DNA of 64,000 nucleotides from Acidobacteriota bacterium (GCA_040005235.1 JBDTZG010000014.1:42206-106205); one strand, 5' to 3'. Shown: positions 1-62,056, counted from the stretch's first letter. Notes: generated from the sequence alone by a model not told the origin. A program made the numbers and translations.

Positions 1-4
1 AGCC

Positions 5-3000
5 TTGCTGGCTCTCTTCGGTTTCCACCACATCGTCGGCGATGGCTGGTCCATGGGATTGATGGTCCGCGAGATCGGGGCGCTCTACGCCGCCTTTTGC
101 CGCGGAAAAGGATCGCCGTTGACGGCTCTGCCGCTGAGCTATCGGGACTATGCGGCTTGGCAGCGGGAATGGCTGCGCGGGGAGGTGCTGGAGCGCGAGA
201 TCGCCGTTTGGCGAAGCCGCCTGAGCGGCGCTCCCGCGGTACTGGAGCTACCTGCGGATCGCCTTCGTGGCATTGCGGCCGGCTCCCGAGGAGCGGCGCT
301 CCCGTTCGTATTGGACGCCAAGGTCGGCGCGAGCCTTGCCGGCCTCGGGCGACGGGAAGGAGCGACGCTGTTCATGGCGCTCCTGGCCGGCTTTCAGACG
401 CTGCTTGCCCGCTACACCGGGGAGACCCGGATTCCGGTAGGCGTACCGGTGGCCGGTCGCCATCAAGTCGAGACCGAAGAGCTGATCGGGCTCTTCGTCA
501 ATACCCTCGTCCACTGCGGCAACCTCGACGAAGCCCCCACGTTCAGCGAGCTCCTCCAACGGGTCCGGAACGAAGCCCTGGAGGCGTGGGCGCACCAGCA
601 CCTGCCGTTCGAAAAACTTGTCAGCGCGCTCCAGCCCGAGAGGAACCTGGGCAGTACGCCGTTGTTCCAGGTTCTGTTCGCGCTGCAGAACGCCCCTCTC
701 CCCGAATTGGCGCTTCCCGGCCTGAGCGTGGAGCTCGTCGAAATACCTCGCGAATCCACCAAGTTCGATTTGAGTTTGGTGCTTGCCGAACGGCGCGGTG
801 AGATCGTGGGTTGGGTGGAATACAGCACCGACCTCTTCGACCGCGTGCGAATCGAACGATTGGCCGGGCATCTGCGCACGCTGTATCAGGCGGTTGGTTT
901 GGATGCGGGCAGGTCGGTGTCCGATCTTCCCTTGCTCGCTCCGGCGGAACGATCGCAGCTCGTCGACGAGTGGAACAACACCGGCGCGCCGGCCGGAGCG
1001 GACGGTCTACTGCATGCCCTGTTTGAAGATCAGGTTGCGCGGACACCGGAGGCCGTAGCTCTTGTATCCGGGCAGGAACGGCTCACCTATTCCGACCTCG
1101 ACGGACGAGCCGATCGTCTAGCGTCCTGGCTGCGGCGCCACGCCGTCGGCCCCGAGACCCGAGTTGCTGTTCTCCTCGAGCGAACGGTGGAGATGGTCGC
1201 AGCTCTCCTGGCGATCTTGAAAGCCGGCGGCGCTTACGTGCCTCTCGATCCGAGCTATCCGGATGAGCGGTTGGCAATGATGGCGGAGGATTCCGGGTTT
1301 ACTGCGGTGGTCACCCAAAGCTCTCTGGTGACGCGGCTCCCGAGGTCGGTCGCCGATCTTCCCGTCGCCCGAATCGATGCCGACCGTGAGGAGATCGACC
1401 GTGAATCGGGGCGGAATCGCATCTCCACCGTCGTGCCGCGGAATCTGGCTTACGTGATCTTCACCTCCGGCTCTACCGGCCGTCCGAAGGGGGTGGCCAT
1501 CGAGCACCGCAGCGCGGTGGCGATGGTGCATTGGGCGCGCGGCGTTTTCTCCGCCGGTGAGCTCGAGGGTGTTCTGGCTTCGACCTCGATTTCTTTTGAC
1601 CTTTCGGTGTTCGAAATCTTCGCCACCCTTTCCTGGGGAGGCAAGGTGGTCTTGGCGGGCAACGTCTTGGACCTGCCGCTTCTACCGGCCGCCGCCGAGG
1701 TTCGCCTGATCAATACCGTTCCTTCCGCCATTTCCGAGCTGCTTGCCGGCGGTGGCCTGCCGAAGTCGGTTCGCACGGTCAATCTCGCGGGAGAGGAGCT
1801 GCCTCTGCCTTTGGTCGACCGCCTTTTCGCCGCCGGCGTCGAGCGGGTCTATAACTTGTACGGGCCTTCCGAGGATACGACCTACTCCACCTTCGCCGGG
1901 ATGACCCCGGGCTCCTCCCAAGCACCCGCAATCGGGCGACCGATCATCGGCACGCAGAGCTACCTGCTGGATTCCGGCCTGCAGCCGGCTCCGCTGGGGG
2001 TTCTGGGCGAATTGTTCCTCGGTGGAGCGGGGCTTGCCCGGGGATATCTCGGGCGGCCGGACCTTACGGCTGCCCGCTTCCTGCCGGATCCTTTCGGATC
2101 GACGGCCGGCGGTCGGCTCTACCGTACCGGAGACCTCTGTGCCTACCGTGCCAACGGCAAACTTGAGTTCCGGGGGCGTACCGATCATCAGACCAAAATT
2201 CGTGGTTTCCGGATCGAGCTCGGCGAGATCGAATCGGTACTGCTGGCCCAGAGGGGCGTTCACGATTCCGTAGTAGTGGCCCGCGAGCACCCGGCCGGCG
2301 GCAAGCAACTGGTGGCGTATGTCGTCCTGAACCCGGAGGATGAGACCAGAGGCACAGCCGCGATGGACCGGCTTCGCCATTCGATCGAACGTTTCCTGCC
2401 GGCTCACATGGTGCCTTCTGCCTTCGTCAGCCTGCCACAGTTGCCGCGCACCCCGAACGGAAAGGTGAATCGCTCGGCACTTCCCATGCCCGAGCGAGGC
2501 TCGGCCGCCCGCGCATTCACGAAGCCCGCTTCGGCGGCTGAAGAGAGCATGACGCGGCTGTGGGCTGACTTGCTCAAGATTTCGCCGGTGGGAACCGAGG
2601 CCGACTTTTTCGATCTGGGAGGCCACTCGCTTCTCGCGGCGCGTCTGGTCCATAGGATTCGCGACGCCTTCGGCGTGGCCCTCCCCCTGCGGGCGGTGTT
2701 CGAAGCCCCGGTGCTCGCCGACCTCGTCGTGCAGGTCGAAGCGCTGCGCGGGCAAGGTGGGAAGGGGCCGGCCGTTCGCCTGCGGCAGCGAGATCGGGAG
2801 GGGACGGCCCCTCTCACTTTTGCCCAAGAGCGGCTTTGGTTCCTCGAACGATTCGATCAGGGGCGCTCCGCTTTGAACCTGCCGGTGGACCTGGAGATCC
2901 GCGGTTCGCTCCATTTCGTCGCCTTGAAGCGGAGCTTGTCGGAAGTGGTGCGTCGCCATGAAGTGCTGCGATCGGTGTTCCTGAATGTCGAGGGGAGCGG

Positions 3001-6000
3001 GTGTCAGAGAGTCATGGCTCCGGCGCCTCTGCTGTTGCCCCGGGTCGACCTGAAGGGATTGGCGCCGGACTTTCGCCAGGACGAGTGCTCCCGTCTGGTC
3101 TCCGGCGAGGCGCTACGGCCCTTCAATCTGGAAAAGGGTCCGCCGTTGCGCGCCCTGCTCGTTTCACTCGGCGGTCGGCTGCAAGTCTTGGGACTCACGC
3201 TTCACCATATCGTCGCCGACGGATGGTCCATCGGCACGCTGGTGCACGAGATGTCGGAGCTCTACCAGGCGTTTTCATCGGGCCGCGCCCTGCAGCTCCC
3301 CGAGTTGGCGGTGCAGTACGCGAGCTTTGCCGAGTGGCAGCGCTCCGAGGAATCCGCCGAGCTTTTTGGCCGACAGCTCGCTTATTGGCGAGAACGCCTT
3401 GGCGGGGCACCCCCGAGCGTCGACCTTCCGACGGACCGTTTGCGGCCTTCGGTCCAGACCTATCGCGGCGCGCGTTGCACTCTGGTCTTGGAGCGCGAGC
3501 TCGCCGAGGGGCTCATTGCGGTCGGTCAGGCGCGCCATGCGACCTTGTTCATGACCCTGCTCGCGGCGTGGAAGGTACTCCTTTTTCGTTTCAGCGGTCA
3601 GACCGACCTGGTTGTCGGGACTCCTTTTGCCGGCCGCGTCAGCGTCGATCTGGAAGGGCTGATCGGCCTGTTCCTCAACTCGCTCGCTCTGCGCACCGAC
3701 CTGTCGGGCAACCCTTCATTCAGCGAGCTTTTGGATCGGGTGCGCGAGACGGCTCTGGGTGCTTACGCCAACGAGGACGTTCCCTTTGAGAAGGTCCTTG
3801 CGGAGCTGCGGCCGGAGCGCGATCTGAGCCGCACTCCGATCTTCCAAATCTTGTTCAACATGCTCAATTTTGAGGTGGCGGAGGTTCGCCTGCCCGATTT
3901 GGAGTTGCGCCTTCTCGCGACGCCGGAGCTGCCTTCGAAATTCGATCTTACGGTTTACGCCGCGGAGCGACCGGAAGGGATTCTGCTCACCCTGGTCTAC
4001 AACGCGGACCTCTTCGACGGCCCCCGGATGACCGAGGCTCTGCGGCAGTTCCGGCTCCTCCTTTGCGGCATCGTCGCCGACCCGCAGATGCGGATCGATC
4101 GGTTTTCGCTGGTTAGCCAGGACGCAGCGGCGATTCTGCCGGATCCCCGGGCCACTCTGGACGCCACCTGGTACGGTCCGGTACACCAGGTCTTCAGCCG
4201 CCGGGCCGCAGACGTTCCGGATGCCGCGGCGATCCTCGATCCGCAGGGCACGATGAGCTACGGCGAGCTCGATCGGCGCAGCAACCGTTTGGCACGTTCC
4301 CTGGTCGAGGGCGGCCTCCGGACCGGCGACGCGGTGGCCGTCTACGCCCATCGTAGCTCGCCGATCGTGTGCGCGGTCCTGGCCATCATGAAGGCCGGTG
4401 GAGCGTTCGTAATTCTGGATCCGGCTTACCCGGCGCAGCGCATCATCGAGCTCATCGAAGTGGCCCAACCGCGCGCTTGGATGGAAATGACGGCCGCCGG
4501 CAACTTGGCGCCGGAGCTCGAGGAATATGTCTCCGCGAGATCCTGGTGTCCGAGGGTGCGGCTTCCCCCGGTGCGGGATACGACGCTCGCATGGGAGCAA
4601 GCATCGTCCGAGCCGCTACGGATCGAGGTGGGAAAAGACGACGTTGCCTATGTCGCCTTCACCTCGGGTTCTACCGGAATCCCCAAGGGTGTGCAGGGAC
4701 GCCATGGTTCTTTGTCTCACTTCGTGCCTTGGCAGCAAAGCCACTTCGGCCTGGACGCTTCCGATCGGTTCTGCATGCTTTCGGGGATCGCTCACGATCC
4801 TCTACAGCGGGACATTTTCACGCCGCTGCAAATCGGAGCTTCGATCGTCATTCCGGATCCCGGCGAAATGCTTGCTTCCGGCCGGCTTGCGGAGTGGCTG
4901 CAGCGCGAAGGAGTAACCGTCGCCCATCTCACCCCGGCCATGGGGCAGGTGATTGTCCAGGCAAAGGCGGGGACCGTTTTGGTTTCCTTGCGGTACTCGT
5001 TTCTGGTGGGTGACGTGTTGACCCGCCGAGACGCCGCACGGTTGCAGCACCTGGCCCCCCGGATGACCTGTGTCAACTACTTTGGCTCGACCGAGACCCA
5101 GCGTGCGGTGGGCTTTCACGTCGTTCCAAACGTGGTGGAAGCGAGCCTTGCGGGGGAAGTGAGCCAAGAGGTACTGCCTCTTGGGAGAGGTATCCGGGAC
5201 GTTCAACTCCTCGTGTTGAACGCCAACGACCAACTCGCGGGAATCAGCGAAGTCGGCGAGATCTGTGTGCGAAGTCCGCATCTGGCACGCGGCTACCTGG
5301 GCGATTCCGAGCTGACTTCGCGCAAGTTCGTCCCCAACCCTTTCACCGGTGCGTCCGAAGACCGCCTCTACCGCACCGGCGATCACGGCCGCTATCTGGC
5401 GGACGGAGAAGTTGGGTTCCTCGGTCGGGCCGATCAGCAGGTCAAGGTTCGAGGTTTCCGGGTCGAGCTCGGCGAGATCCAGGCGGTCCTTGGGCGTCAC
5501 TCCGGAGTCCGCGACGTAGTGGTGCTGCCGTGGAAGGACGGAACAGGGGCGACAAGATTGGCAGCCTACGCGGTGCCGAACCCGGGTGTCGATCTCGATA
5601 CCGGCGAGCTGCGGAGCTTTCTCCAGGACCGCTTGGCGGCGTACATGGTCCCCTCGGTCTTCCTGATTCTCGACCGCCTGCCGATGACCCCCAATGGCAA
5701 GCTCGACCGGCGCTCGCTTCCCGATCCTCTCACCGCACGACGTGGTGAGCAGGAGTATGTCCAACCGAGGACCCAAGTCGAGATGACGATCGCCGACATC
5801 TGGCGCAAGGTACTCGAGGTGGACAAGATCAGCGCTTTCGACAATTTCTTCGACCTTGGTGGTCACTCGTTGTTGCTTCTCCAGGCCCATAGCGAGCTGG
5901 AGAAGCGGCTGAGACTTCAGATCGCGGTGGTTGACCTTTTCAGGTACCCCACGGTCAACGCGCTGGCCAAGGCCTTGACCCAGGACCCGGGTCCTCCGGA

Positions 6001-6088
6001 CGAAACGCAACTCGATCGACGCGATCGAGCCACCCGCAGGTGGCAAGGGATCGAAGAACGCAAGAAAGGGCTAAGGCGGCAAAGATGA
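5..6088 (+). CDS. NRPS, 5'-truncated: (C)-A(Ala)-T-C-A(Aad/Glu-like)-T
   Basis: The frame is open from the window edge and begins inside a C domain (HHIVGDG at ~26). A1 has YVIFTSGSTGRPKG and code DLFNNALTYK (Ala). T has GGHS (~2620) and the second C has HHIVADG (~3203). A2 has LSGIAHDPLQRD (~4781) and code ~DPRHFVYRAK. The last T has GGHS (~5858). Confidence 0.95.
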   Translation: MLALFGFHHIVGDGWSMGLMVREIGALYAAFCRGKGSPLTALPLSYRDYAAWQREWLRGEVLEREIAVWRSRLSGAPAVLELPADRLRGIAAGSRGAALPFVLDAKVGASLAGLGRREGATLFMALLAGFQTLLARYTGETRIPVGVPVAGRHQVETEELIGLFVNTLVHCGNLDEAPTFSELLQRVRNEALEAWAHQHLPFEKLVSALQPERNLGSTPLFQVLFALQNAPLPELALPGLSVELVEIPRESTKFDLSLVLAERRGEIVGWVEYSTDLFDRVRIERLAGHLRTLYQAVGLDAGRSVSDLPLLAPAERSQLVDEWNNTGAPAGADGLLHALFEDQVARTPEAVALVSGQERLTYSDLDGRADRLASWLRRHAVGPETRVAVLLERTVEMVAALLAILKAGGAYVPLDPSYPDERLAMMAEDSGFTAVVTQSSLVTRLPRSVADLPVARIDADREEIDRESGRNRISTVVPRNLAYVIFTSGSTGRPKGVAIEHRSAVAMVHWARGVFSAGELEGVLASTSISFDLSVFEIFATLSWGGKVVLAGNVLDLPLLPAAAEVRLINTVPSAISELLAGGGLPKSVRTVNLAGEELPLPLVDRLFAAGVERVYNLYGPSEDTTYSTFAGMTPGSSQAPAIGRPIIGTQSYLLDSGLQPAPLGVLGELFLGGAGLARGYLGRPDLTAARFLPDPFGSTAGGRLYRTGDLCAYRANGKLEFRGRTDHQTKIRGFRIELGEIESVLLAQRGVHDSVVVAREHPAGGKQLVAYVVLNPEDETRGTAAMDRLRHSIERFLPAHMVPSAFVSLPQLPRTPNGKVNRSALPMPERGSAARAFTKPASAAEESMTRLWADLLKISPVGTEADFFDLGGHSLLAARLVHRIRDAFGVALPLRAVFEAPVLADLVVQVEALRGQGGKGPAVRLRQRDREGTAPLTFAQERLWFLERFDQGRSALNLPVDLEIRGSLHFVALKRSLSEVVRRHEVLRSVFLNVEGSGCQRVMAPAPLLLPRVDLKGLAPDFRQDECSRLVSGEALRPFNLEKGPPLRALLVSLGGRLQVLGLTLHHIVADGWSIGTLVHEMSELYQAFSSGRALQLPELAVQYASFAEWQRSEESAELFGRQLAYWRERLGGAPPSVDLPTDRLRPSVQTYRGARCTLVLERELAEGLIAVGQARHATLFMTLLAAWKVLLFRFSGQTDLVVGTPFAGRVSVDLEGLIGLFLNSLALRTDLSGNPSFSELLDRVRETALGAYANEDVPFEKVLAELRPERDLSRTPIFQILFNMLNFEVAEVRLPDLELRLLATPELPSKFDLTVYAAERPEGILLTLVYNADLFDGPRMTEALRQFRLLLCGIVADPQMRIDRFSLVSQDAAAILPDPRATLDATWYGPVHQVFSRRAADVPDAAAILDPQGTMSYGELDRRSNRLARSLVEGGLRTGDAVAVYAHRSSPIVCAVLAIMKAGGAFVILDPAYPAQRIIELIEVAQPRAWMEMTAAGNLAPELEEYVSARSWCPRVRLPPVRDTTLAWEQASSEPLRIEVGKDDVAYVAFTSGSTGIPKGVQGRHGSLSHFVPWQQSHFGLDASDRFCMLSGIAHDPLQRDIFTPLQIGASIVIPDPGEMLASGRLAEWLQREGVTVAHLTPAMGQVIVQAKAGTVLVSLRYSFLVGDVLTRRDAARLQHLAPRMTCVNYFGSTETQRAVGFHVVPNVVEASLAGEVSQEVLPLGRGIRDVQLLVLNANDQLAGISEVGEICVRSPHLARGYLGDSELTSRKFVPNPFTGASEDRLYRTGDHGRYLADGEVGFLGRADQQVKVRGFRVELGEIQAVLGRHSGVRDVVVLPWKDGTGATRLAAYAVPNPGVDLDTGELRSFLQDRLAAYMVPSVFLILDRLPMTPNGKLDRRSLPDPLTARRGEQEYVQPRTQVEMTIADIWRKVLEVDKISAFDNFFDLGGHSLLLLQAHSELEKRLRLQIAVVDLFRYPTVNALAKALTQDPGPPDETQLDRRDRATRRWQGIEERKKGLRRQR

Positions 6089-6090
6089 AG

Positions 6091-6096
6091 AAGGAG
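6091..6096 (+). promoter_or_regulatory. Shine-Dalgarno for the 6333-aa PKS/NRPS gene
   Basis: AAGGAG 7 nt upstream of GTG 6104, just after the stop of the previous gene. Confidence 0.7.
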
Positions 6097-6103
6097 CTCG
6101 TTC

Positions 6104-9100
6104 GTGGCTGAAACGGCGGTCGAGAAGGGAATTGCGATCATCGGCCTAGATGGCCGCTTCCCGGGTGCTCGAAACGCAGAAGAGTTGTGGCAGAACCTCT
6201 GCGAAGGTGTCGAATCGCTCTCCCGGTTCTCACAGGAAGAGCTGCGCGCGTCGAGCCCTGACGGGACGCGCCTGGAGGATCCGCGGTTGGTACCTGTTCG
6301 CGGTGTTCTTTCCGAGGTCGAGCTTTTCGACGCCGGCTTTTTCGGGATAAGTCCACGCGAGGCGGCCGCGACCGATCCGCAGCAGCGTGTCTTCATCGAA
6401 TGCGCCTGGACCGCGTTGGAGGACGCCGGCTACGACCCGGGCAACTGCGGAGGCCTTGTCGGCGTTTACGCAGGCTCCGCGCTCAGCTCCTACGCCTGGA
6501 ACAACCTGGGCTCGGACCCGGAGCTCCTGGCATCGCTGGGAGCCCTCCAGCTCGGCATTTTGAACGGCAAGGACCACCTGCCGACCCGAGTTTCCTACCT
6601 TTTGAATCTCACCGGTCCGAGCGTTGCGGTGCAGACGGCCTGCTCGACGTCCTTGGTGGCCGTACACATGGCCTGCCTTGCCTTGCTCAACTACGAGTGC
6701 GACATGGCGCTGGCGGGAGGCGTCAGCATCGCGGTGCCGCAAAAGGCAGGCTATCTGTTCGAAGAGGGGGGAATCTTGTCGCCGGACGGGCACTGTCGCG
6801 CTTTCGACGCCGCTGCCCATGGCACGGTGATGGGCGATGGCGTCGGCATCGTGGTGCTCAAGCGTCTCGATGAGGCAATGGCGGACGGCGACCGTATTCG
6901 CGGGGTGATCCTCGGTTCGGCAATCAACAATGACGGCGGAGGAAAGGTTGGCTACACCGCTCCGGGTTTGGAGGGTCAGGCGGAGGTCATCGCGGCGGCC
7001 CATGCGGTGGCGGGGATCGACGCAGGAACGATCAGCTATGTGGAGACGCACGGCACCGGCACCCCTTTGGGCGATCCGGTGGAGATTTCGGCCCTGACTC
7101 GCGCCTTCCGAATGAGCACGGACCGTATCGGTTCCTGTTCTATCGGTTCGCTCAAGACCAATATCGGGCACCTCAACACGGCGGCAGGTGTCGCCGGCTT
7201 GATCAAAGCGGTCCTTGCCCTCGAGCACAAGGCGATCCCACCGAGTTTGCACTTCGAGCGGCCCAATCCACGGATCCATTTTGACGACAGCCCCTTCTTC
7301 GTCAACACGCGTTTGACGGAATGGTCGGCCGACGGCGCGCCGCTCCGCGCGGGTGTCAGTTCGTTCGGCATTGGCGGAACCAACGCCCACGTCGTTCTTG
7401 AGGAAGCTCCGGTGCCGGAGGTGTCCGATGACGCGCGGCGCTGGCAATTGTTGGTGATCTCGGCCAAAACCGAGTCCGCCCTTGAAGCGGCGGCCCAGAA
7501 CTTGGCGGAGCACCTCGGCCGGCACCCTGACTTGAAGCTCGCGGACGCTGCCTTCACGTTGCAAGTCGGACGCAACCGCATGGAGCATCGCCAGATCTTG
7601 GTCTGCCGCGATGCCGCGGAAGCGATCCGCGAGCTGACGGCCGGCGAGGACTCGCGGGCCGTGCGGCTGCACGAAGCGGCTCGGGAGCGGCCGGTGGTTT
7701 TCCTCTTCCCGGGGCAAGGTTCACAGTACGTCGGCATGGGACGCGAGCTCTTCGAGCTCGAGCCTCTCTTTAGAGAGCAGGTTGATCTCTGCGCCTCTCA
7801 TCTTTTGCCGCACTTGGGATTCGACATTCGAACGCTCTTCGAGAGCTCAACCGAGGAGTCGCGGGCAGCGGAGGAGCGGCTTCAGGAAACCGCGGTAGCG
7901 CAACCGGCTCTGTTTGTCGTCGAATACTGCCTTGCCCGCCTGTTTGCCGAGTGGGGCATCGAGCCGGAGGCGATGATCGGGCATTCGATCGGGGAGTACG
8001 TCGCCGCCTGTCTTTCCGGGGTCATGAGCCTTCCTGACGCCCTACGTCTGGTGGCGGCCCGGGGTCGCCTCATGGGGGAGTTACCACCCGGCGGGATGAC
8101 CGCGGTTCACCTTTCTGAAGCCCAGGTTAGACATCTTCTACCTGCGGATTTGGAGATCGCGGCGGTCAATGGGCCGACGCTAGTCGTGGTGGCGGGAACC
8201 CTTACCGCCGTGGCGGCTTTTGAAGAAAAGCTGGCTGAGGACGGTGTCGAGCATCGACGGCTCAAGACCTCTCACGCTTTCCACTCCGCGATGATGGAGC
8301 CGATCTTGGAGCCCTTCGCCCGCGTGGTGGCCTCGATCGCGTTGCACGAACCGCAGCGGACCTTCATTTCAAATCTGACCGGACGACCGGCGACCGCCTC
8401 CGAAGTTACGGACCCCAACTATTGGGTCCGCCACTTGCGCGACGAAGTACGTTTCTCCGACGGTGTCGACGAGATATTCCGCGATCCAGGGCGGGTCTTC
8501 CTTGAGATCGGGCCAGGCCGAGCGCTGACCACGATCGTCCGGCAGAATCCTGGCGCGCAGGCCGGGATGACAATCCCCACCATGCGCCCGCAGTCTCGGG
8601 AAGGGTCGGACTTGGCTTGGGCGCTGGAGGCCCTGGGTCGCGCCTGGCTCGCGGGGGTGGCGATCGATTGGCGCGGTTTCCACCACCGCCATCGCCGCTT
8701 GCGGGTGGCGATGCCTGGTTATCCGTTCGAACGGCAACTGCATTGGATCGAGGCGCGTCCTCTCCGACCGTCCGGACCTCTCTCCGCAATTCCGGCAAGG
8801 AGCGCGGACCCCGCGGGCTGGTTCCATGCCCGGACTTGGCGGCGATCGGCAGGACAGGGCTCAGCCGCGACCGAACCGGGCGCCCTCCTACTGTGGGCCG
8901 CGCCCGGCGGTTTGGGCGGTGAAATCCACCGTGAGCTCACCTCGCGCGGCGTTGCGGTGGTGCTCGCCGAGCTTTCGGGCAGTCTGGAGCCTAGTTCCTT
9001 AACCGCCAGCCTTGCGGAAGAGGTCGCCCCACGACGTATCGCTCTGTTGGTGGAGCGTTGTACGCCGGGGCCGGAAGCAGCCGGGGCGCTCGCCCTCCTA

Positions 9101-25105: not shown

Positions 25106-25108
25106 AGC

Positions 25109-44088: not shown

Positions 44089-44095
44089 CCCGCTC

Positions 44096-48721: not shown

Positions 48722-48732
48722 GGGGTGCAGCT

Positions 48733-54700: not shown

Positions 54701-57700
54701 CCGAGTACATGGTGCCGAGTGCGCTGATCCTCCTCGACGCCCTACCCCTCAATGCCAACGGCAAGGTGGATCGGGCCGCCCTACCCTCGCCGTCGGAGGG
54801 GCGCGAGGGGAAGGCGGATGGATTCGTCGCACCGCGGACTCCTGTCGAAGAGGTGCTGGCGATCCTCTGGGGGCAGGCCCTGGGGGTCGAATCGATCGGG
54901 GTCCACGAAGACTTCTTCGACCTCGGCGGCAATTCGCTGCTGGCCACCCGTTTGATCTCGCGCATGCGCGAGACTTTTCACGTCGACGTCTCGGTGCGCC
55001 GGATGTTCGAATCTCCGACGATTTCCGGCATCGCCCAGGACCTGGAAAGCGACCTGCGAACAGGGCTGATCCAGGCGGCCCCGGACCTGGTGGCCGTGCC
55101 GCGCACCGGCGAGCTTCCCCTCTCCTTCTCGCAGCAGCGTCTCTGGTTTCTCGACCAGCTGCTTCCCGAGGGAAATGTTTACAACATCTCTACCGCCATT
55201 TGGCTCGAAGGCGTTCTGAAAGTGGCTCCGTTGCGCCGCAGCCTCAATGAGATCGTTCGTCGGCACGAGGTCTTGCGCAGCCGTTTCTTCTCGGAGCAGG
55301 GCCGACCGGTCCTCGCGATCGAGCCGTCCGTGGACCTGCCGCTCCCGGTGGTTGATTTCCTGGCGGTGCCCGCGGCGAGACGCCATGGCGAAGTTCAAAA
55401 AATGGCCCGCTGGGAAGCGCAACGGTCCTTTTCGCTCTCCCAGGCGCCGCTGTTGCGGGTCGTTTACGTGCACCTCGGCGACGGCGAACAGGTCCTGCTG
55501 ATGACCGTGCATCACATCGTCTTCGACGGCTGGTCCGCGGGCATCTTTTTTCGCGAGCTCGAGACTCTGTATCGCGCCTTCGCCGCGGGTCGCCCTTCGC
55601 CCCTGGACGAGCTGCCGATCCAGTACTTGGATTATGCGGGATGGCTGCGAAATTGGCTCGCAGGCGAGGTTTTGGAGCAGCAGCTCGCCTATTGGCGCCA
55701 ACAGCTCGCCGGGGCGCCCTCCGTCCTCGAGATGCCCTTGGACCGGCCGCGACCCGGTGTGCAGACTTTCCGCGGCGCGAACCGCTCGGCGAACCTGCCC
55801 TTCCTCGCCGCCCGGCGCCTCAAGGCGTTGAGCCGTGAGCAGGGGGCGACCTCGTTCATGACGATGCTCGCCGCGTTTTACGCCCTGCTCCATCACTATT
55901 CCGGACAAGATCGGATCGCCGTCGGGACGCCGATCGCCAACCGCACGCGCTCCGAGACGGAGTCGCTCATCGGGCTCTTTGCCAACACGCTCGTTCTCTG
56001 CTCCTGGGTCGATGGCCGGCGCAGTTTCCACGATCTGATCGCCGTGGTACGCGATGTCGCCATCGGCGGTTACGCGCACCAAGACGTGCCGTTCGAAAAG
56101 CTGGTGGACGAGCTGCATCCTCAGCGCGACCTCGCCCATCAACCGCTGTTCCAGGTGATGCTGGTCTTCGAAGGGCAGAATCAGACGGGCGGCGGCGCCT
56201 CCGCTCCGAGTCTCAACGCCAACGTCGTCGACAGCTCGCAAGGCGCGGCGAAGTTCGACATGACCCTCTTCCTGGACGAGGACGGTGCGCGTCTGTCCGG
56301 CATGCTGGAATACAACGTGGATTTATTCGACGGCACGACCGCGGGGCGCCTGTTGGAGCATTTCGGCGCGCTGCTGGAAGGGCTTGCCGAAGATCCTCAC
56401 CGCAGCATCGCCGAGCTGTCGATCCTCTCGGCGGCGGAACGGCACCAGACCCTCATGGCTTGGAACGACACGAGCCGCGTCGTCTCCGACGAGCGCGGGC
56501 TGCAGCAACTCTTCGAGGAGAGAGCGGCCTCTCAGCCGACGGCAACGGCGGTGGTCTTCGCCGACCGTGACCTTACGTACGGCGGACTGGAGGACCAGGC
56601 GAACCGCATCGCACGCCACCTGCGGTCCTGCGGGGTGCAGCAAGGCTCGTTGGTCGCGGTGTACATGGAGCGGGCGCTTGAGATGATCCCGGCTCTGCTG
56701 GGCATTCTCAAAGCGGGCGGAGCCTACGTCCCGCTCGAAACCAGCTACCCGCCGGCACGCGTCGAATGGATTCTGTCGACCTTCGACATCGGTTTCATGA
56801 TCACCCAGAGCGCACTGCTGCCCGGCGTGGGAGCGCTGAGCTTGGAGGCGCTCCACGACGTGCTGTGCCTGGATCCGGAAGGCGCTTCTGCCGCAATGCC
56901 GCAAGAATACGGCTTTCGGGTCACCGCCGACCTGTCCGCGCTGTCGCCGACCCGGATCGAGGGCGGAGCGGGCGCCGAGGACACGGCCTACATCATCTTC
57001 ACCTCGGGGTCCACGGGAACGCCGAAAGGGGTGTGGGTACGGCATCGCTCGGTGATCAATCTGATCGACTGGGTCAACCGCGAAATGAACGTAGGGCCGC
57101 ACGATCGGTTGCTGTTCCTCACCTCGCTCTGTTTCGATCTCTCCGTCTACGACATCTTCGGCATCCTGGCGGCGGGCGGCTCGCTGCGCGTGGGTCGGGA
57201 AGAGGATGTGCGGGAGCCGCAACGCCTGCTCAAGATCCTGCTGGAGGGTGGGATCACGTTCTGGGACTCCGCTCCCGCCGTCCTCCAGCAGCTGGTGCCG
57301 TACTTGGACGCAATGGGACCGGGCGAGGGAGGAGATACCTTGCGCCTGGTCTTCCTGAGCGGCGACTGGATTCCGGTCACCCTTCCCGATCGGGTCCGCC
57401 GCGTCTTTCCGCGCGGGCAGGTCGTGGCTCTCGGCGGCGCTACGGAGGCGACCGTTTGGTCGAATTACTTCCCGGTCGGCGCGGTGGATCCTCAATGGGT
57501 CAGCATTCCCTATGGACGGCCGATTCAGAACGCGCGCTACTACGTGCTCGGGCCGGGACTTCAGCCCTGCCCGATCGGCGTGCCGGGCGATCTATATATC
57601 GGCGACGAATGTCTTTGCTCGGTCTACGCCGGCGATCCCGCGCTCACCGCCGATCGCTTCATTCCCGATCCGAATGGCCATCGGGCCGGCGGACGCATGT

Positions 57701-59202
57701 ACCGCACCGGTGACCGAGCGCGTTTCCGCGGCGATGGCAACCTCCAATTCTTGGGGCGCTCCGACAACCAGGTCAAGCTGCGCGGCTTTCGCATCGAACT
57801 GGGCGAGATCGAGGCCACCCTGCGACGCCACCCGGGCGTCGGAGAGGCCCTCGTGGTGGTCCGCGAGGACTCAGCGGGAGACCGCCGCCTGGTGGCCTAC
57901 CTACTTCCCGACCCAGGGCAGAGTGCCGATTCCTCGGCCCTGCGCGGCTTCGTCAAGGACCAGTTGCCGGAATACATGGTGCCGTCCGCGTTCGTCCATC
58001 TCGCGGCTTTTCCGATGACGCCCAATGGCAAGGTCGATCGGCGCGCCCTGCCGGCGCCGGGCCGGATCGAGACCCGGGACGAAAGGTTTCTGCTCCCTCG
58101 CGACACCGTGGAGCTCAAGCTCGTTCAGCTCTGGGAGGAGATCCTCAAGGTCAATCCGGTGCATATCGATGACGACTTTTTCGATCTCGGCGGCAACTCG
58201 CTCGTCGCGGTTCAACTGATGGCCCGCATCCGGTTGGACTTCCAGCGCGACCTCCCGCTCGCCACCCTGTTTCAATCCTCCACCATCCTCCAACTGGGCC
58301 ACGTGCTGCGCCAACAGGTCGAAGGAGCGAGCTTTTCGCCCTTGGTGGCGATCCAGCCCTTGGGCCGCCGGCCGCCGCTCTTCTGCGTGCATGGCATCGG
58401 CGGCGAGGTGCTGTCGTACCTTGAGCTCGCCCGATGCCTGGGCCGCGACCAGCCGGTCTATGGGCTCCAGGCGCCGCCTCCCGCCGACCTGGGAGCCGAG
58501 ACGGTCGCCTTGGAGAAGGCCGCCGGCCTTTACATCGAGGAGATTCGTACCCTCCAGGCTCAAGGCCCCTACCAACTGGCCGGATACTCTTACGGTGCCG
58601 TGTTGGCGTTCGAGATGGCCCAACAGCTGCGGCGAGCGGGGGAGCAGGTCGCCCTGCTCGGCCTGATCGATGGCTTCTCGCCGCTCGTGGCACGACGCGG
58701 TCGCAGCCGTAGCGACGTCATGATGCTCGCCAGCATGGCCCGCGAAGTCGCGCGTCGCTCCGGACGGGATCTCAACCTGACCAACGAGAGCGTGGAAACG
58801 CTGCCGCCGGACGATGCGATCGGTCATATCCTGGATCTCCTTCTGGCGTCCGACCTGTTGCCGCCGGAGACCGATCGCGACTGGATCCAACGATTCCTGA
58901 GCGGGATCAAGTCCCGAGAGGATTCGCTCGCTCAATATGAGCCTCAGGTCTATGACGGCGAGGTGACGCTGTTCACCTCTACCGAGGTAGACGCCGAAAC
59001 CGCCCGGGTGTTCATCGAGCTGGGGATCGATGTCCACGATCCGACCCGCGGCTGGGAGGCGTTGACGAGTCGGCCGATGAGGATTTTCCCGCTGCCGGGC
59101 CATCACGAAACCATCCTCCAAGCGCCCCACGTGGCCATCATGGCGGAGCACTTTCGGACCTGTCTAGCACCCGGCGCGGCCGACCGCCCGGCGGAGGTCT
59201 GA
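48733..59202 (+). CDS. Terminal NRPS: C-like interface domain-A(Asn)-T-C-A(Ile/Val)-T-C-A(Cys-like)-T-TE
   Basis: Start placed at TTG 48733 (TAAGGGG upstream, no overlap with the previous gene) rather than 48553. N-terminus FSLSPQQ...LAAVCGD. A codes DLTKVGEVGK (Asn), DAFFLGVTFK (Ile/Val), DLYDFSLVWK. T motifs GGHS, GGNS, GGNS. TE: PLFCVHG, GYSYG, PGHH. Confidence 0.95.
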   Translation: MNQSGIENRPGEPGSEEILGFSLSPQQRRALWLKERTAGSAFWIQCTFRIEGPIELKALRHAVSRVVARYEVLRTVFVTTPAPAKQVIREYLAPHLRHLDLRSLDEEARAAAVDLAVSEAVREPFDLERGPLMRVSFLTLEPELSILEISLAAVCGDRSTLLRIVEEIARGVDPPDGEPEGEVLQYADMADWLNQLEESSEPWTREAAWPSRDAAELDALLLPFESPTASFRPGVIPVPLAPGALAGLEALAARRGASLAGVLQAAWHAVLGRLTGSREMVVGSSTDGRRYDELREAVGPLSKALPIRSRPAPAMPFFDLLAAVEAAIAEAIRIEESFSWEPLLGGREGRGYFPFAFELWEEPVPLRIGGTVWSLGQVSGGGERFTAALVCRHSAGALKAEVGYNEAVLSREEAERLAERFATFLSSLMATPEAPTGSLSMVGSKERLQLLGDWNETRSEDVEKWPVHRWFERQARTTAENTAVVAGGVRLTYSELDRRSNQLARFLRRSGVSPDVLVGLAVERSVAMVVGLLGVLKAGGAYLPLDLGHPRERLEMILTEARPAVVLTTMESLERLPVAAERRVCLDRDWERIAVESAEPVAAAVALENLAYVIYTSGSTGRPKGVMISHGGLRNYLLWATRAYGAGEGQGSPVHSPLGFDLTVTSLLSPLVAGGAVVLVEEASGVDGLLEVLRQGMDFGLVKLTPAHLSLVEQGLGVPFEGKVRTLVVGGEALFAESFAALRAEAPATRIINEYGPTETVVGCCTYEVPLEGAPPAGAVPIGRPIANTRLYLVDGWWNPVPRGVQGEIWIGGAGVGRGYLARPDLTAERFVPDPFSDEPGERVYVSGDLGRLGLDGNLVYLGRTDHQVKIHGYRIELQEIEAVLRRHPHVREAAVVVAGSGLDSRLLAFVVPSGEAVDQTALAAFLTLHLPSYMIPAQIGQIASLPLTENGKVDRGLLLAREAETAARRDFIAPRTPVEELLSGIWGDLLGVARVGVDDDFFELGGHSLLAMRLVSRIRSAFGARLSLGVVFSARTVSSLARAVEAERWRDLERGAGAITRAERDKPLPVSLQQRRLWILHQVNQGEMVYHIPYALRLAGDLDLESLRWAITRLSGRHESLRTTFGNLDGELVQIVADPMAVQCPCLDLSCLSEEDREVEARRRVREMMHRTFDLQTGPLLRILTLRLARQEHIVALSMHHIISDGWSMEIFVRELVTLYEAFRAGEGPRLPELPIQYGDYAAWQHRWLTGEVLDRHIDFWRRRLAEPLPQLELPTDRPRPEFPGLGGGTVAIAFDGGVYGDLRQLGQRQLATSFMLFLAAWNVLLNRYTGQEDILIGTPIAGRDHPEVEGLIGFFVNTLILRNDLTGEPTFIDLLDRVRDRALDAYAHDELPFDRLVEELQPERRSGQTPFFRVAFTLVNRPRVDVGFSGLKLGAFEIEVPISKFDLTLSCLEQEHQVLLEIEYRSDLYESSTALRMLGHLDVLLRAVAADPARPISELPMLTPSELRQAVGDWNATATKYPVGSCIHELFETQARRTPGRQAVVFGDRSLTYGELDERATGLAQGLRKLGVGPEVLVGLLMDRSIDMVVAMVGILKAGGAYLPLDPSYPRERLMLMLEDSGSPLVVTHQARLAEVPEGNWKTLSLEQDAGEGRGGAIFSGATPESLAYVIYTSGSTGVPKGVAVPHRAIVRLVRDTNYVTLTETDRIAQVSNSSFDAATFEIWGALANGAGFVIIEKDVALSPRDFAEVLRRERITTTFLTTALFQQIVREEPSAFATLREVLFGGEAVDPRWSRELLAGRPPERLLHVYGPTESTTFASWHLIEKVAEGARTIPIGLPLANTSIYVLERGFQPVAVGVAGELFIGSDGLARGYLFRPELTAARFVPDPFGPSGSRLYRTGDLVRRQPEGPIEFLSRVDHQVKLRGFRVELGEIETALLSHPAVGSAIVVVREDVPGEKSLVGYVVPKQQAGFDVRELKALLKQRLPEYMVPSALILLDALPLNANGKVDRAALPSPSEGREGKADGFVAPRTPVEEVLAILWGQALGVESIGVHEDFFDLGGNSLLATRLISRMRETFHVDVSVRRMFESPTISGIAQDLESDLRTGLIQAAPDLVAVPRTGELPLSFSQQRLWFLDQLLPEGNVYNISTAIWLEGVLKVAPLRRSLNEIVRRHEVLRSRFFSEQGRPVLAIEPSVDLPLPVVDFLAVPAARRHGEVQKMARWEAQRSFSLSQAPLLRVVYVHLGDGEQVLLMTVHHIVFDGWSAGIFFRELETLYRAFAAGRPSPLDELPIQYLDYAGWLRNWLAGEVLEQQLAYWRQQLAGAPSVLEMPLDRPRPGVQTFRGANRSANLPFLAARRLKALSREQGATSFMTMLAAFYALLHHYSGQDRIAVGTPIANRTRSETESLIGLFANTLVLCSWVDGRRSFHDLIAVVRDVAIGGYAHQDVPFEKLVDELHPQRDLAHQPLFQVMLVFEGQNQTGGGASAPSLNANVVDSSQGAAKFDMTLFLDEDGARLSGMLEYNVDLFDGTTAGRLLEHFGALLEGLAEDPHRSIAELSILSAAERHQTLMAWNDTSRVVSDERGLQQLFEERAASQPTATAVVFADRDLTYGGLEDQANRIARHLRSCGVQQGSLVAVYMERALEMIPALLGILKAGGAYVPLETSYPPARVEWILSTFDIGFMITQSALLPGVGALSLEALHDVLCLDPEGASAAMPQEYGFRVTADLSALSPTRIEGGAGAEDTAYIIFTSGSTGTPKGVWVRHRSVINLIDWVNREMNVGPHDRLLFLTSLCFDLSVYDIFGILAAGGSLRVGREEDVREPQRLLKILLEGGITFWDSAPAVLQQLVPYLDAMGPGEGGDTLRLVFLSGDWIPVTLPDRVRRVFPRGQVVALGGATEATVWSNYFPVGAVDPQWVSIPYGRPIQNARYYVLGPGLQPCPIGVPGDLYIGDECLCSVYAGDPALTADRFIPDPNGHRAGGRMYRTGDRARFRGDGNLQFLGRSDNQVKLRGFRIELGEIEATLRRHPGVGEALVVVREDSAGDRRLVAYLLPDPGQSADSSALRGFVKDQLPEYMVPSAFVHLAAFPMTPNGKVDRRALPAPGRIETRDERFLLPRDTVELKLVQLWEEILKVNPVHIDDDFFDLGGNSLVAVQLMARIRLDFQRDLPLATLFQSSTILQLGHVLRQQVEGASFSPLVAIQPLGRRPPLFCVHGIGGEVLSYLELARCLGRDQPVYGLQAPPPADLGAETVALEKAAGLYIEEIRTLQAQGPYQLAGYSYGAVLAFEMAQQLRRAGEQVALLGLIDGFSPLVARRGRSRSDVMMLASMAREVARRSGRDLNLTNESVETLPPDDAIGHILDLLLASDLLPPETDRDWIQRFLSGIKSREDSLAQYEPQVYDGEVTLFTSTEVDAETARVFIELGIDVHDPTRGWEALTSRPMRIFPLPGHHETILQAPHVAIMAEHFRTCLAPGAADRPAEV

Positions 59203-59205
59203 GCC

Positions 59206-59979
59206 ATGCAACTCGATTCCGTTCGAGCCGTGGTGACCGGCGCGGCCCGGGGGTTGGGCTGGCACTTCGCACTGGAGCTGCTGCGGGCGGGAGCCCAGGT
59301 GGCGGCGGGAGACATCGACATCCCCGGCCTTCGCAGGCTCAAAGTCGCGGCCGAGGGACTGCCGGGAAACCTATTCGCCTCGTCTCTCGACGTGGTCGAC
59401 GAGCTCGCCGTTCAGTCGTTCATCGATCAGGCTTGGAGCCGACTCGGGGGGCTCAATACCCTGATCAACAACGCCGGCATCCTGCGCGATGGCTTGCTGG
59501 TGCGAAGGGACGCGGAAGGAAGCGGCGGCAAGCTCCCGACCTCGCAATGGTCGAAGGTCTTGGAGGTGAACCTTACGGGGCCTTTCCGGGTCGCCCGTGA
59601 GTTCGTCGCGCGTCTGTTGAACGAGCGGATCGAAGCTGGAGTCATCGTCAACATCTCTTCCCTGGCGCGCGCCGGAAACCCCGGGCAGTCGAGCTACTCG
59701 GCATCGAAGGGGGGGCTCGATGCGGCAACTCGAACCTGGGCCTTGGAGCTGGCTCCCTTCGGAATTCGCGTGGGAGGGGTTGCTCCCGGGGTCATCGACA
59801 CACCGATCCTGGAAGGGATCTCCGAAGCGGCCCTGGCACGTTTGAAGGAGGCCATTCCTCTCGGGCGTTTGGGTCGGCCGGACGAGGTCTGGCTCGCCGT
59901 CAAATTCATCATCGAGTGTGAGTTCTTTTCCGGTCGCATCATCGAAGTGGACGGTGGCGCAGCCATGGGCGGCGCGTGA
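59206..59979 (+). CDS. Short-chain dehydrogenase/reductase (FabG/3-oxoacyl-ACP reductase-like)
   Basis: TGAARGLG Rossmann motif, NNAGILRD, NISS, catalytic YSASK, PGVIDT, IPLGRLG, VDGG. 257 aa, starting 3 nt after the TE gene. Confidence 0.92.
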   Translation: MQLDSVRAVVTGAARGLGWHFALELLRAGAQVAAGDIDIPGLRRLKVAAEGLPGNLFASSLDVVDELAVQSFIDQAWSRLGGLNTLINNAGILRDGLLVRRDAEGSGGKLPTSQWSKVLEVNLTGPFRVAREFVARLLNERIEAGVIVNISSLARAGNPGQSSYSASKGGLDAATRTWALELAPFGIRVGGVAPGVIDTPILEGISEAALARLKEAIPLGRLGRPDEVWLAVKFIIECEFFSGRIIEVDGGAAMGGA

Positions 59980-60015
59980 TCCGCCTTGCGGCTGCATCAA
60001 GGCCACCCAACCAAC

Positions 60016-60021
60016 AGGAGG
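60016..60021 (+). promoter_or_regulatory. Shine-Dalgarno for the carbamoyltransferase
   Basis: AGGAGG 10 nt before ATG 60032 (MYVLGI). Confidence 0.7.
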
Positions 60022-60031
60022 TTCAGTCTTA

Positions 60032-62056
60032 ATGTACGTTCTAGGCATTCATGGCGGCTTGAAGCGAGACTTCGAGGATGGGGGAACGGATTTCCGCTGG
60101 CACGACGGCGCGGCTGTCTTGGTCAAGGATTATGAGATCGTCGCGGCGATCGAAGAAGAGCGCCTGAATCGCGTCAAGCATTCCAACGCTTTCCCGGCCA
60201 GGGCCGTGCGTTTCTGCCTGGAGCAGGCTGGAATCGGCTTGGCCGAGGTCGATGCCATAGCGGTCAACCTTTCCCGCGAGGCGGTGGACATGCTGGCCAT
60301 CTCCCGTGTGCTGGAGGGGCGACAGGAGACGGAGCTGTCCGGGGCCAGGCTGCTCGCGGGTCTGTTCGAGAAGGAGTTTCGCACCGATGTGACTCCCAAG
60401 CTGCGCTTCTGCAATCATCACTTCGCCCACGCCTACAGCGCCTTCTTCGCCGCCAATTTCGAGCGTTCCTTAGTCGTCACCCTCGACGGCGATGGCGACG
60501 GCCTCTGTGGCATGGTCCTGGCGGGGGAGGGAGGGCAGTTGCGCAAGCTGCGGGAGTACCCGGAGCACAAATCGCTGGGCAATTGGTACACGACCCTGAT
60601 CCGCGTCCTCGGCTACAACCGATTCGACGAGTACAAGGTGATGGGCTTGGCCCCCTACGGCGATCCGAAAGTTTTCGGCGACCTCTTTCGCAGCCTCTAT
60701 CGTCTCCTTCCCGGCGGGGACTACGAGCTGCTGCCGATGGCCCGCCAGTTCTCTCTGCTCGGCCAGGCCGGCCTCTTGGCGCACTTCCGCAAGAAGGGCG
60801 AGCCTTTTACTCAGGTCCACAAGGATTTTGCGGCCGGCCTCCAGACCGCCCTCGAAGATCTTGCCCTGCACATGATTGGCCACTTCCAGCGCGAGACGCG
60901 CGAAGAAAGGCTCTGCCTCGCGGGCGGCGTGGCCCACAACTGCAGCATGAACGGGCGAATCCTCTACTCCGGTTTGTTCAAGGAAGTCTTCGTGCAACCC
61001 GCGGCCCACGATGCGGGGACCGCCCTGGGCGCCGCTTGGTCGGTGCTCCATGAGGCCGGCGTGAAGCGCCCTCGGCGTCGGATGGAGCATCTGTATCTTG
61101 GCACCGATATCGGCGGCGAGGCGGAGATCCGGCGAACCTTGGAAGCATGGCAGGCGTTCGTCTCCTTCGAGAAGGTCGATCGCATCGCCGAGCGTACGGC
61201 GAAGCTCCTCGCGGAGGGGTCGGTGATCGGTTGGGTTCAAGGGCGATCCGAGTTCGGCCCGCGCGCCCTTGGCAACCGCAGCATTCTCGCGGACCCCCGT
61301 CCCGCGGAGAACAAGGAGAGGATCAACCGGATGGTCAAGAAGCGAGAGGGCTACCGGCCCTTCGCGCCCTCCGTGCAAGAGGAAAAAGCGGCGGACTACT
61401 TCGTCCTTTCGCCGTCCCAGAGCGCCTTCCCTTTTATGATCTTCGTCCTCGAAGTGCAGGAGTCCCAGCGAGCCAACCTGGGTGCGATCACCCATCTCGA
61501 CGGCACGGCCCGCGTGCATACGGTCTCTGAGGGTGCCAACCCGCTCTACTGGCAGCTCTTGGGAGAGTTTGGCCGGCTCACGGGAATCCCGATGCTCTTG
61601 AACACCTCGTTCAACAACAACGCGGAGCCGATCGTCGACTCTCCCACGGATGCCCTGGTCTGTTTCCTGACCACCGGCCTCGACTACATGGTCGTGGGTG
61701 ATTTTCTGGTGGCCAAACGCGAGAAGCCCGCGGAAGACCTCCGGATTCTGAACCTGGTTGCGAGCCTGGACCGGACGAAAAAGCTGGTTCGTCGCACGAG
61801 AGCCGAAAGCTCCGCCTCGGATGCGGGTCGGGTCTACTCGATCGAGAGCACCGCCAGCGAGCACTTCGGCGAAGCCTCTGCGGCCATTTCTCCCGAGCTA
61901 TTCCAACTTCTCTGTGCGGGCGATGGCCACACCCGGCTTGAGGCCCTGGCCGGATCGATCGGCATCACGGAACACGAGAAGCTCCGAGCCCTTGCCGAGG
62001 AGGTCCATGGGCTTTGGGAGCGGCGGATGCTGATCTTTGAACCTCTGACCTCCTGA
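60032..62056 (+). CDS. Carbamoyltransferase (NodU/CmcH/TobZ family)
   Basis: MYVLGI...HDGAA...EEERLNRVKH, HHFAHA, DGDGD, EYKVMGLAPYG, GGVAHN, EFGPRALGNRS, RPFAPS, LLNTSFN. Start set at ATG 60032 after AGGAGG (674 aa). Confidence 0.93.
   Translation: MYVLGIHGGLKRDFEDGGTDFRWHDGAAVLVKDYEIVAAIEEERLNRVKHSNAFPARAVRFCLEQAGIGLAEVDAIAVNLSREAVDMLAISRVLEGRQETELSGARLLAGLFEKEFRTDVTPKLRFCNHHFAHAYSAFFAANFERSLVVTLDGDGDGLCGMVLAGEGGQLRKLREYPEHKSLGNWYTTLIRVLGYNRFDEYKVMGLAPYGDPKVFGDLFRSLYRLLPGGDYELLPMARQFSLLGQAGLLAHFRKKGEPFTQVHKDFAAGLQTALEDLALHMIGHFQRETREERLCLAGGVAHNCSMNGRILYSGLFKEVFVQPAAHDAGTALGAAWSVLHEAGVKRPRRRMEHLYLGTDIGGEAEIRRTLEAWQAFVSFEKVDRIAERTAKLLAEGSVIGWVQGRSEFGPRALGNRSILADPRPAENKERINRMVKKREGYRPFAPSVQEEKAADYFVLSPSQSAFPFMIFVLEVQESQRANLGAITHLDGTARVHTVSEGANPLYWQLLGEFGRLTGIPMLLNTSFNNNAEPIVDSPTDALVCFLTTGLDYMVVGDFLVAKREKPAEDLRILNLVASLDRTKKLVRRTRAESSASDAGRVYSIESTASEHFGEASAAISPELFQLLCAGDGHTRLEALAGSIGITEHEKLRALAEEVHGLWERRMLIFEPLTS

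Follow-up and report, generated by a model that had tools for sequence, protein, structure and literature searches.

Beta-amino acids enter the peptides of the iturin pathway from a beta-keto thioester by way of a module ordered KS-AT-ACP-AMT-C, in which the ketosynthase (KS), acyltransferase (AT) and acyl carrier protein (ACP) of a polyketide synthase (PKS) are followed by an aminotransferase (AMT) and the condensation (C) domain of a nonribosomal peptide synthetase (NRPS). MycA and ItuA of the mycosubtilin and iturin systems, as well as McyE, contain this arrangement with a class III aminotransferase. The same order occurs in a single protein, O4, encoded in a stretch of 64,000 nucleotides from an Acidobacteriota bacterium (GCA_040005235.1 JBDTZG010000014.1:42206-106205; the whole stretch is hereafter called the window, and positions are those of the window unless a contig is named), where its activity is predicted from the sequence. 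Proteins named 'iturin family lipopeptide synthetase A' match part of O4 (48% over about 55% of the query). Unlike in the iturin type, the O4 module stands in the middle of the chain behind a Gly-type module, not behind a fatty-acid loader, and O4 ends after its C domain, the partner adenylation (A) and thiolation (T) domains being located on the next subunit behind a C-like domain that lacks the catalytic histidines (C*). The locus contains a genuine and intact orphan cluster of the hybrid NRPS/PKS lipopeptide kind. In all likelihood the genes constitute one co-linear line of about 82 kb, a hybrid of NRPS and type I PKS that is primed with a fatty acid and synthesizes one lipopeptide, with C* domains that do not condense.

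Each chemistry of the line is well known individually. PchF, the yersiniabactin HMWP and EpoB combine, like O2 of the locus described here, a heterocyclisation (Cy) domain with a Cys-type A domain into which a methyltransferase (MT) is inserted near the C-terminus of A. In contrast to these proteins, the Cy module of O2 is fed by a PKS module and forms part of a lipopeptide line for 18 residues; neither a thiazoline reductase nor an oxidase domain was found in the line. NovN, GdmN and TobZ share both Carbam_trans domains with O8 and act on hydroxyls of an aminocoumarin, an ansamycin and an aminoglycoside, whereas the acceptor of O8 would be a lipopeptide. According to a study on uncultured soil Acidobacteria rich in biosynthetic gene clusters (Candidatus Angelobacter, Candidatus Eelbacter, which represents group 4, and the UBA5704 lineage), very large NRPS/PKS genes and orphan clusters are usual in these organisms, and none of the clusters of Candidatus Angelobacter was linked to MIBiG (PMC9723581). 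The present host resembles them in that it is uncultured and has many large NRPS/PKS genes; by RpoB it groups with metagenome-assembled genomes (MAGs) of the Thermoanaerobaculia, to which all 13 of the 13 organism-named RpoB relatives belong (88-90% identity). The host is, by this protein sequence, an uncultured Thermoanaerobaculia (Acidobacteriota) bacterium.

Extent and domain order of the assembly line

The window comprises the last 64 kb of contig C132 (106,205 nt), with a G+C content of 0.62-0.66 throughout. Positions 2..62056 are filled by eight co-directional frames, O1-O8, which are separated by at most about 55 nt or overlap slightly; frames of 2028 to 6333 codons are not attributable to chance. 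Domains were mapped by comparing 26 pieces of about 1000 residues with Pfam and then with hidden Markov models (HMMs) derived from the C, A and T domains of the window itself. The initial annotation, made from the window alone, had listed 13 A domains, two KS-AT modules, Cy, two MT, an epimerisation (E) domain, AMT, a thioesterase (TE), a short-chain reductase (SDR) and a carbamoyltransferase in one operon, and all of them were recovered close to where it had placed them, on one strand. The A domains are distributed as two in O1, three in O2, four in O3, one in O5 and three in O6. The assembly line that it had described is present, but the window contains only its 3' part; the line begins upstream. 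The initial annotation had also not listed the C* domains, the ketoreductase remnant of O2 or the D-donor type of the C domain that ends O5.

The whole line of about 81.6 kb extends over about 22.6-104.3 kb of C132 and starts about 19.6 kb upstream of the window. It consists of one loader, 18 NRPS modules, two PKS modules (21 modules in all) and one TE. The upstream part, formed by the gene U5 and the complete O1, contributes seven NRPS modules, five of which lie wholly outside the window. U5 (2844 codons) encodes an AMP-binding domain, a DIP2-like AMP domain and a PP-binding domain, followed by C-A-T-C-A-T. By these domains, the start of U5 is a fatty-acyl-AMP-ligase (FAAL)-ACP loader with two modules, and the sequence of an N-terminal FAAL, an ACP and a C domain is the domain order of FAAL-primed lipopeptide synthetases. 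The complete O1 has 5412 codons and five C-A-T modules; it is cut by the edge of the window, which contains the 2028 3' codons. Between U5 and O1 lies U6 (C132:31183-32109), a gene of 308 codons with a coding-like G+C content by codon position, a signal-peptide-like start and a CxxC motif (SPTCSVC). U6 has no family in Pfam or NCBIfam; ESM Atlas clusters at 0.87 offer a TlpA/peroxiredoxin-type thioredoxin fold as a lead. The operon is limited on the 5' side by an ABC permease gene on the opposite strand before U5 and on the 3' side by small opposite-strand genes after O8.

The domain order U5-U6-O1 to O8 and the intact motifs are observed directly. Repeated C-A-T units of the modular NRPS kind are present, with HHxxxD, the A core motifs and the carrier serine; HHxxxD is retained in all ordinary C domains and the serine in 21 of 21 carriers, and the approximately 27,000 codons of the line contain no internal stop. 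No MbtH-like gene was found in the cluster, and two are located on other contigs of the genome. The features of the window are as follows (all on the + strand).

2..6088, +: O1 (3' 2028 of 5412 codons), C(cut)-A-T-C-A-T; Pfam, HMMs; codes DLFNNALTYK, DPRHFVYRAK
6104..25105, +: O2, 6333 aa, KS-AT-ketoreductase (KR) remnant-ACP-Cy-A(N-MT)-T-C-A(N-MT)-T-C-A-T-E-C; Pfam, HMMs, motifs
6128..8653, +: KS-AT of O2; KS with TACSTS, HGTGT, NIGH; AT with GHSIG, HAFH
8771..10003, +: shrunken KR-like remnant of O2, probably inactive; weak alignment to the KR of the upstream PKS
10316..11656, +: Cy domain of O2; DYLIAD motif, kinship to solved Cy domains
11714..14374, +: A domain DLFNLSLIWK (Cys type), interrupted by an N-MT (core 13262-13567); code, Pfam
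16112..18814, +: A domain DLYDFSLVWK (Cys-like clade), interrupted by an N-MT (core 17681-17986); code, Pfam
20549..21994, +: A domain DAWQFGLIDK (Gln type); code
22310..23608, +: E domain of O2; HHLVVDG; TIGR01720 with 130 bits (cut-off 74); GGDSI carrier before it
23705..25018, +: C-terminal catalytic C of O2, D-donor (DCL) type; HHLLLDG
25109..37933, +: O3, 4274 aa, C*-A-T-C-A-T-C-A-T-C-A-T, codes of Gln, Ser, Thr and Gly type; Pfam, HMMs
25166..26467, +: C* of O3, HSLCGDG (second His lost); motif
37930..44088, +: O4, 2052 aa, KS-AT-ACP-AMT-C; Pfam, HMMs, motifs
41425..42510, +: class III aminotransferase (AMT) of O4; PF00202, E 2.4e-50; glutamate-1-semialdehyde aminomutase-like
42667..43998, +: C-terminal catalytic C of O4; HHLVTDG
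44096..48721, +: O5, 1541 aa, C*-A(Ser type)-T(GGDSI)-C(DCL type); Pfam, HMMs, motifs
44114..45379, +: C* of O5, PSLCADR replacing HHxxxDG; motif
48733..59202, +: O6, about 3489 aa from TTG 48733 (most likely start), C*-A-T-C-A-T-C-A-T-TE; codes of Asn type, Ile/Val type and DLYDFSLVWK
48793..50079, +: C* of O6, AAVCGDR replacing HHxxxDG; motif
58372..59154, +: thioesterase of O6; GYSYG
59206..59979, +: O7, FabG-like SDR of 257 aa; Pfam, family search
60032..62056, +: O8, about 674 aa, from ATG 60032 (most likely start; AGGAGG before it), O-carbamoyltransferase of the NodU/CmcH family; Carbam_trans_N and Carbam_trans_C

Catalytic domains, specificity codes and the predicted product

Both PKS modules of the window, with KS, AT and the serine of an ACP, are of the type I modular cis-AT kind. 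The two KS domains retain TACSTS, HGTGT and NxGH (Cys-His-His), and the two AT domains GHSxG and HAFH, the latter of which we take to be a malonyl-specific signature. In O2, AT and ACP are separated by a spacer of 461 residues, in which no Pfam family, and hence no KR, was matched at E<=1e-4; a sequence search of the PDB aligned only its first 42 residues, which form the post-AT linker. The spacer resembles the KR region of the upstream PKS (29% by tblastn; 34% over 409 aligned residues), its GxGxxG motif is degenerate (GQIGVAS) and deletions follow. The O2 module thus has neither the family match nor the intact GxGxxG of a functional KR, and the spacer is probably, by sequence, the remnant of a dead one.

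The Cy domain of O2 contains DYLIAD where C domains have HHxxxD, and its nearest solved relatives are the Cy domains of HMWP2/Irp2 and EpoB (E ~1e-99). The DxxxxD motif, this kinship and an adjacent A domain with a presumed Cys code are the features of a heterocyclising module. The two methyltransferases of O2 are 45% identical and share the motifs VLEIGCGTG and NELxxYRYD. Because their best solved relative is the N-methylating TioS, an interrupted A/N-MT domain (E 9e-53), both, including that of the Cy module, are predicted to be N-methyltransferases. Further downstream in O2, an E domain that scores above the TIGR01720 cut-off is combined with a GGDSIL carrier and followed by a C domain of DCL type, which starts with LSPLQxGxLFH and aligns to the post-E part of PRK05691; the E, GGDSI and DCL motifs of O2 are assumed by us to have their usual meanings. 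The terminal C domain of O5, a candidate dual E/C domain, is also DCL-like. It has no preceding E domain, is 42% identical to the DCL domain of O2, aligns to the same region of the profile and is preceded by a GGDSI carrier. O8 matches NovN and GdmN over its whole length (E ~1e-162), in agreement with an O-carbamoyltransferase of the NodU/CmcH family.

The ten Stachelhaus positions of each A domain were read from conserved motifs in an alignment of all A domains. O1 within the window yielded DLFNNALTYK and DPRHFVYRAK, after which the first PKS module forms the next unit. The codes of O2 are DLFNLSLIWK, DLYDFSLVWK and DAWQFGLIDK; those of O3 are DAWQFGLIDK, DVWHISLVDK, DFWNIGMVHK and DILQLGMIWK, followed by the PKS module with AMT. 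Behind this module come DVWHISLVDK in O5 and DLTKVGEVGK, DAFFLGVTFK and DLYDFSLVWK in O6. We take these codes to specify, in order, Ala, an Aad/Glu-like acidic residue, Cys, a Cys-like residue, Gln (twice), Ser, Thr, Gly, Ser, Asn, Ile/Val and a further Cys-like residue, and the upstream codes presumably specify Gly-like, an unassigned residue, Ala-like, Asp and Ala. The code DLYDFSLVWK occurs twice, in O2 and O6, in A domains that are 60% identical. When matches that sum over two A domains are set aside, the best solved relative of this A domain is the Cys-activating BmdB; the substrate is not fixed as Cys because position 278 is occupied by Asp. A PDB search with two A domains yielded no substrate, the top scores being sums over the two A domains of LgrA. 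The codes DLYDFSLVWK and DPRHFV were not found mentioned in the literature.

By this reading, the product would be an N-acylated 18-residue peptide with two malonate-derived C2 units, of a sequence that would run roughly acyl-Gly-X-Ala-Asp-Ala-Ala-(acidic, Aad/Glu-like)-C2-Cys(thiazoline)-NMe-X'-D-Gln-Gln-Ser-Thr-Gly-C2(beta-amino)-Ser(perhaps D)-Asn-Ile/Val-X', where X' is the Cys-like residue with the code DLYDFSLVWK. The residue order of the chain proposed in the initial annotation is reproduced by the extracted codes, with presumed residue names. That chain agrees with the part encoded in the window, but it covers only the last two thirds; the upstream genes encode a lipid starter and five further residues.

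Synthesis would begin with a fatty acid that is adenylated, loaded and joined to a Gly-like residue, after which six more residues would be added. The acidic residue would then be extended by malonate. Because the KR of the O2 PKS module is probably dead, it is proposed that O7 may act in trans to reduce the resulting beta-keto group. At the Cy module Cys would be condensed and cyclised, and an N-methylated Cys-like residue, D-Gln, Gln, Ser, Thr and Gly would follow. In O4, Gly would be extended by malonate and the beta-keto group transaminated. The Ser residue added after the beta-amino unit may be inverted, as suggested by its GGDSI-type carrier and by the D-donor character of the C domain that follows. 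Asn, Ile/Val and a second Cys-like residue would complete the chain, which TE would release, probably as a macrocycle; candidates for the ring nucleophile are the beta-amine and a Ser/Thr hydroxyl. O8 would carbamoylate a hydroxyl, for which one candidate is the beta-hydroxyl formed by O7 at the KR-less first PKS module. As a speculation, the CxxC protein U6 could perform thiol/disulfide chemistry on the two non-cyclised Cys-like residues.

C* domains at the subunit junctions

O3, O5 and O6 each open with a C* domain, and each of the preceding subunits (O2, O4, O5) ends in a catalytic C. The C* domains share 21-28% identity with ordinary C domains and 28-31% among themselves. When they are left out of the count, the catalytic C/Cy domains of the line equal the A domains in number (18 each), which implies that each terminal C works for the subunit after it and that the three C* domains are surplus. 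In the proposed mechanism, the catalytic C that ends O2, O4 and O5 would act in trans on the carrier that stands first in the following subunit, whereas C* would not condense and would serve as a platform for the A domain or as a docking partner.

Support for a conserved arrangement was obtained from other genes. The genome contains six C* copies, which share an invariant Cys and Asp, with LPxLCxD in the place of HHxxxD, and all six C*-first genes are preceded on their strand by a gene with a catalytic C at its end. A FAAL-primed NRPS cluster of the same genome (contig C91:2-58940) has the catalytic C/C* junction three times, at two of which a gene of about 330 codons is located between the partners. 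By eye only, these genes resemble TauD/SyrP-type hydroxylases. Among 390 proteins, collected by two NRPS homologue searches and a profile search (its 150 listed proteins), 44 of 44 C*-type domains, called when they scored above 200 bits and more than 50 bits above the ordinary C profile, lie at the N-terminus, starting within the first 100 residues. According to their source names, C*-opened proteins are found in Brasilonema, Nostoc and Dapis (cyanobacteria) and in other Thermoanaerobaculia. The profile search with the six C* sequences against 1.84 billion representatives returned 126,887 matches at E<=0.001, a number that does not size the C* class because giant proteins with many C domains dominate the ranking. 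A PDB search with the C* of O5 revealed no special class, the best matches being ordinary C domains of Txo2/Txo1 (E 2e-18).

The terminal C of O4 and the C* of O5 were also modeled as a complex, which received a score of 0.60 versus 0.00 for the best of three controls and lends weak support to an interaction. Of 80 solved complexes, 58 attain the mark applied, as do 2 of 110 mismatched pairs; the passing score was 0.60 or under for only 7 of the 80 solved complexes and for both of these mismatches. The runs agreed in at least 84% of the contacts, and the predicted local distance difference test (pLDDT) of the partners was at least 82. In the literature, no dead or tandem condensation domains of this kind and no such motifs were found, which is no proof of their absence. 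An N-terminal pseudo-C domain in microcystin synthetase, suspected from a PDB match named 'McyA', was dismissed: according to the preprint, the crystal contains the ordinary second module. We tentatively propose, as a possibility somewhat short of even, that a catalytic C and a dead C* together make up a type of junction between NRPS subunits, conserved and not described before, at which C acts in trans. If so, the junction would be a natural split site and docking solution for the re-engineering of assembly lines, and the extra C-like domain should not be read as an additional condensation.

Alternative readings, relatives and neighbouring genes

Close relatives were sought in a collection of 5.8 billion proteins that includes those of NCBI. 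O5 has one close relative, of the same length and 91% identical, in the assembly of a metagenome run, and the other 119 matches listed do not exceed 47%. The ACP-AMT-C part of O4 has a 93% relative on a metagenome contig of matching length, and the close relatives of both proteins come from bioreactor metagenomes; the next matches listed are at 56% (a Thermoanaerobaculia MAG) and 55%. No O5 orthologue was present in 40 related genomes, seven of them of the same genus, where the best matches reached 37-56% and those above 50% covered the A domain only; each of these genomes holds many NRPS matches. In a scan of species-representative genomes with O5, three loci only, with 28-32% identity, were obtained. 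A literature search that left most subscription journals aside retrieved no natural product of Thermoanaerobaculia or of Acidobacteria NRPS. Judged by protein identity, an indirect test, no characterised cluster is close by sequence. Within these searches the description of the line as uncharacterised is borne out, the best named matches being 56% (O4 part) and at most 47% (O5).

The integrity of the assembly was assessed with contigs of other sequencing runs, compared over 34000-53999. A root metagenome run, possibly of the source study, tiles this region without a difference, and the stretch occurs letter for letter in two metagenome runs of one study, one from soil and one from root. Two bioreactor-metagenome runs of another study yielded contigs of 16,475 and 13,272 nt and more, which show the same order with about 93% identity (1113 differences over 16,464 nt) and bridge the O3/O4, O4/O5 and O5/O6 junctions; they are independent support for the gene order in a related population. 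In the bioreactor relative, a 41-nt stretch in the KS-to-AT linker region of O4 (39370-39412) is replaced by five other letters. There was no RNA run among the sequencing runs listed.

It is conceivable that the genes do not form one line and that, with the N-termini of O3, O5 and O6 starting separate or branching pathways and the terminal C domains of O2, O4 and O5 off-loading chains, several shorter products arise. Such a scheme would account for three subunits that end in C and are followed by one starting with a C-like domain; C-terminal C domains are known to release chains in other systems, and the C* family is found only at protein N-termini, as are starter domains. However, the C* domains lack one or both catalytic histidines, so that acylation is not expected of them, only one thioesterase and one loading module exist in 82 kb, and 18 catalytic C/Cy domains for 18 A domains fit a single line exactly. 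Since the terminal C of O2 is, in addition, of the D-donor type directly behind E, which is a normal elongation arrangement, and the genes are tightly packed on one strand, several products are improbable.

Even less probable is that the locus was assembled as a chimera, or that the cluster is silent, in decay and without a product. The assembly does consist of 140 contigs, and the line includes the KR remnant and the three dead C-like domains; yet the long frames are free of internal stops, all other catalytic motifs examined are intact, and C* is a conserved class with invariant residues, unlike the outcome of random decay. The contigs of the other study, moreover, are co-linear at 93% over 20 kb with the frames kept. 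With a similarly small probability the cluster belongs to a compound that has already been described. The orphan status was derived from protein identity and from literature lacking most subscription journals and supplements, but no named protein exceeds 56% (O4 ACP-AMT-C) or 47% (O5), close copies occur only on metagenome contigs, no orthologue was detected in the 40 relatives or in the species-representative scan, and no cultured producer was found for the host class.

A single co-linear line with the product outlined above is the preferred reading, and the following points weigh against it or parts of it. The substrate names are presumed from the specificity codes, and DAW(V)LGHVVK, DPRHFVYRAK and DLYDFSLVWK are without a defensible assignment. 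An N-MT in the Cy module clashes with a plain thiazoline; cyclisation or methylation may fail, or a reduction may be needed. What points to epimerisation by the terminal C of O5 is its DCL-type sequence and the GGDSI carrier, and the targets named for O7 and O8 are guesses. The predicted complex of the O4 C and the O5 C* gives weak support, and solved C-A and T-C structures of C domains could bias the model. The independent contigs cover 20 kb of the window, and the rest of the 82 kb derives from one assembly.

If expressed, the line would synthesize a long N-acylated, partly N-methylated peptide with two ketide units within the chain, a thiazoline, a carbamate and a beta-amine that is either free or closes a ring. 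Since no product in print was found for the host class, the cluster is a fair lead towards novel chemistry. The lead is sound and not extraordinary, as soil Acidobacteria contain a great many such orphan clusters, and the 82 kb are hard to clone.

Downstream of O8, a small gene at 62172-62666 (-) has a coding-like G+C content and weak helix-turn-helix matches (E ~0.007); it is followed by two small genes at 62700-63290 (-) and 63355-63777 (-), with a coding-like G+C content and no Pfam or NCBIfam family. Upstream, a second hybrid line occupies C132:551-18391. Between the two lines are located U3, an open reading frame of 481 codons (C132:18579-20024) without a Pfam or NCBIfam family, and a duplicated MacB/FtsX-type permease gene (C132:20043-22532, -). 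In the KR of the upstream PKS (U1; C132 ~10.3-10.9 kb), FCAASAF stands at the place of the catalytic Tyr, which we would expect in YAAAN, and this KR may be inactive. The second line is separate from the one described here. It is ordered KS-AT-ACP-C-A-T-KS-AT-KR-ACP, a transporter of the major facilitator superfamily (MFS; 11499-12857) and C-A(MT)-T-TE; it has its own TE, and it opens with KS at a distance of 550 nt from the end of the contig.

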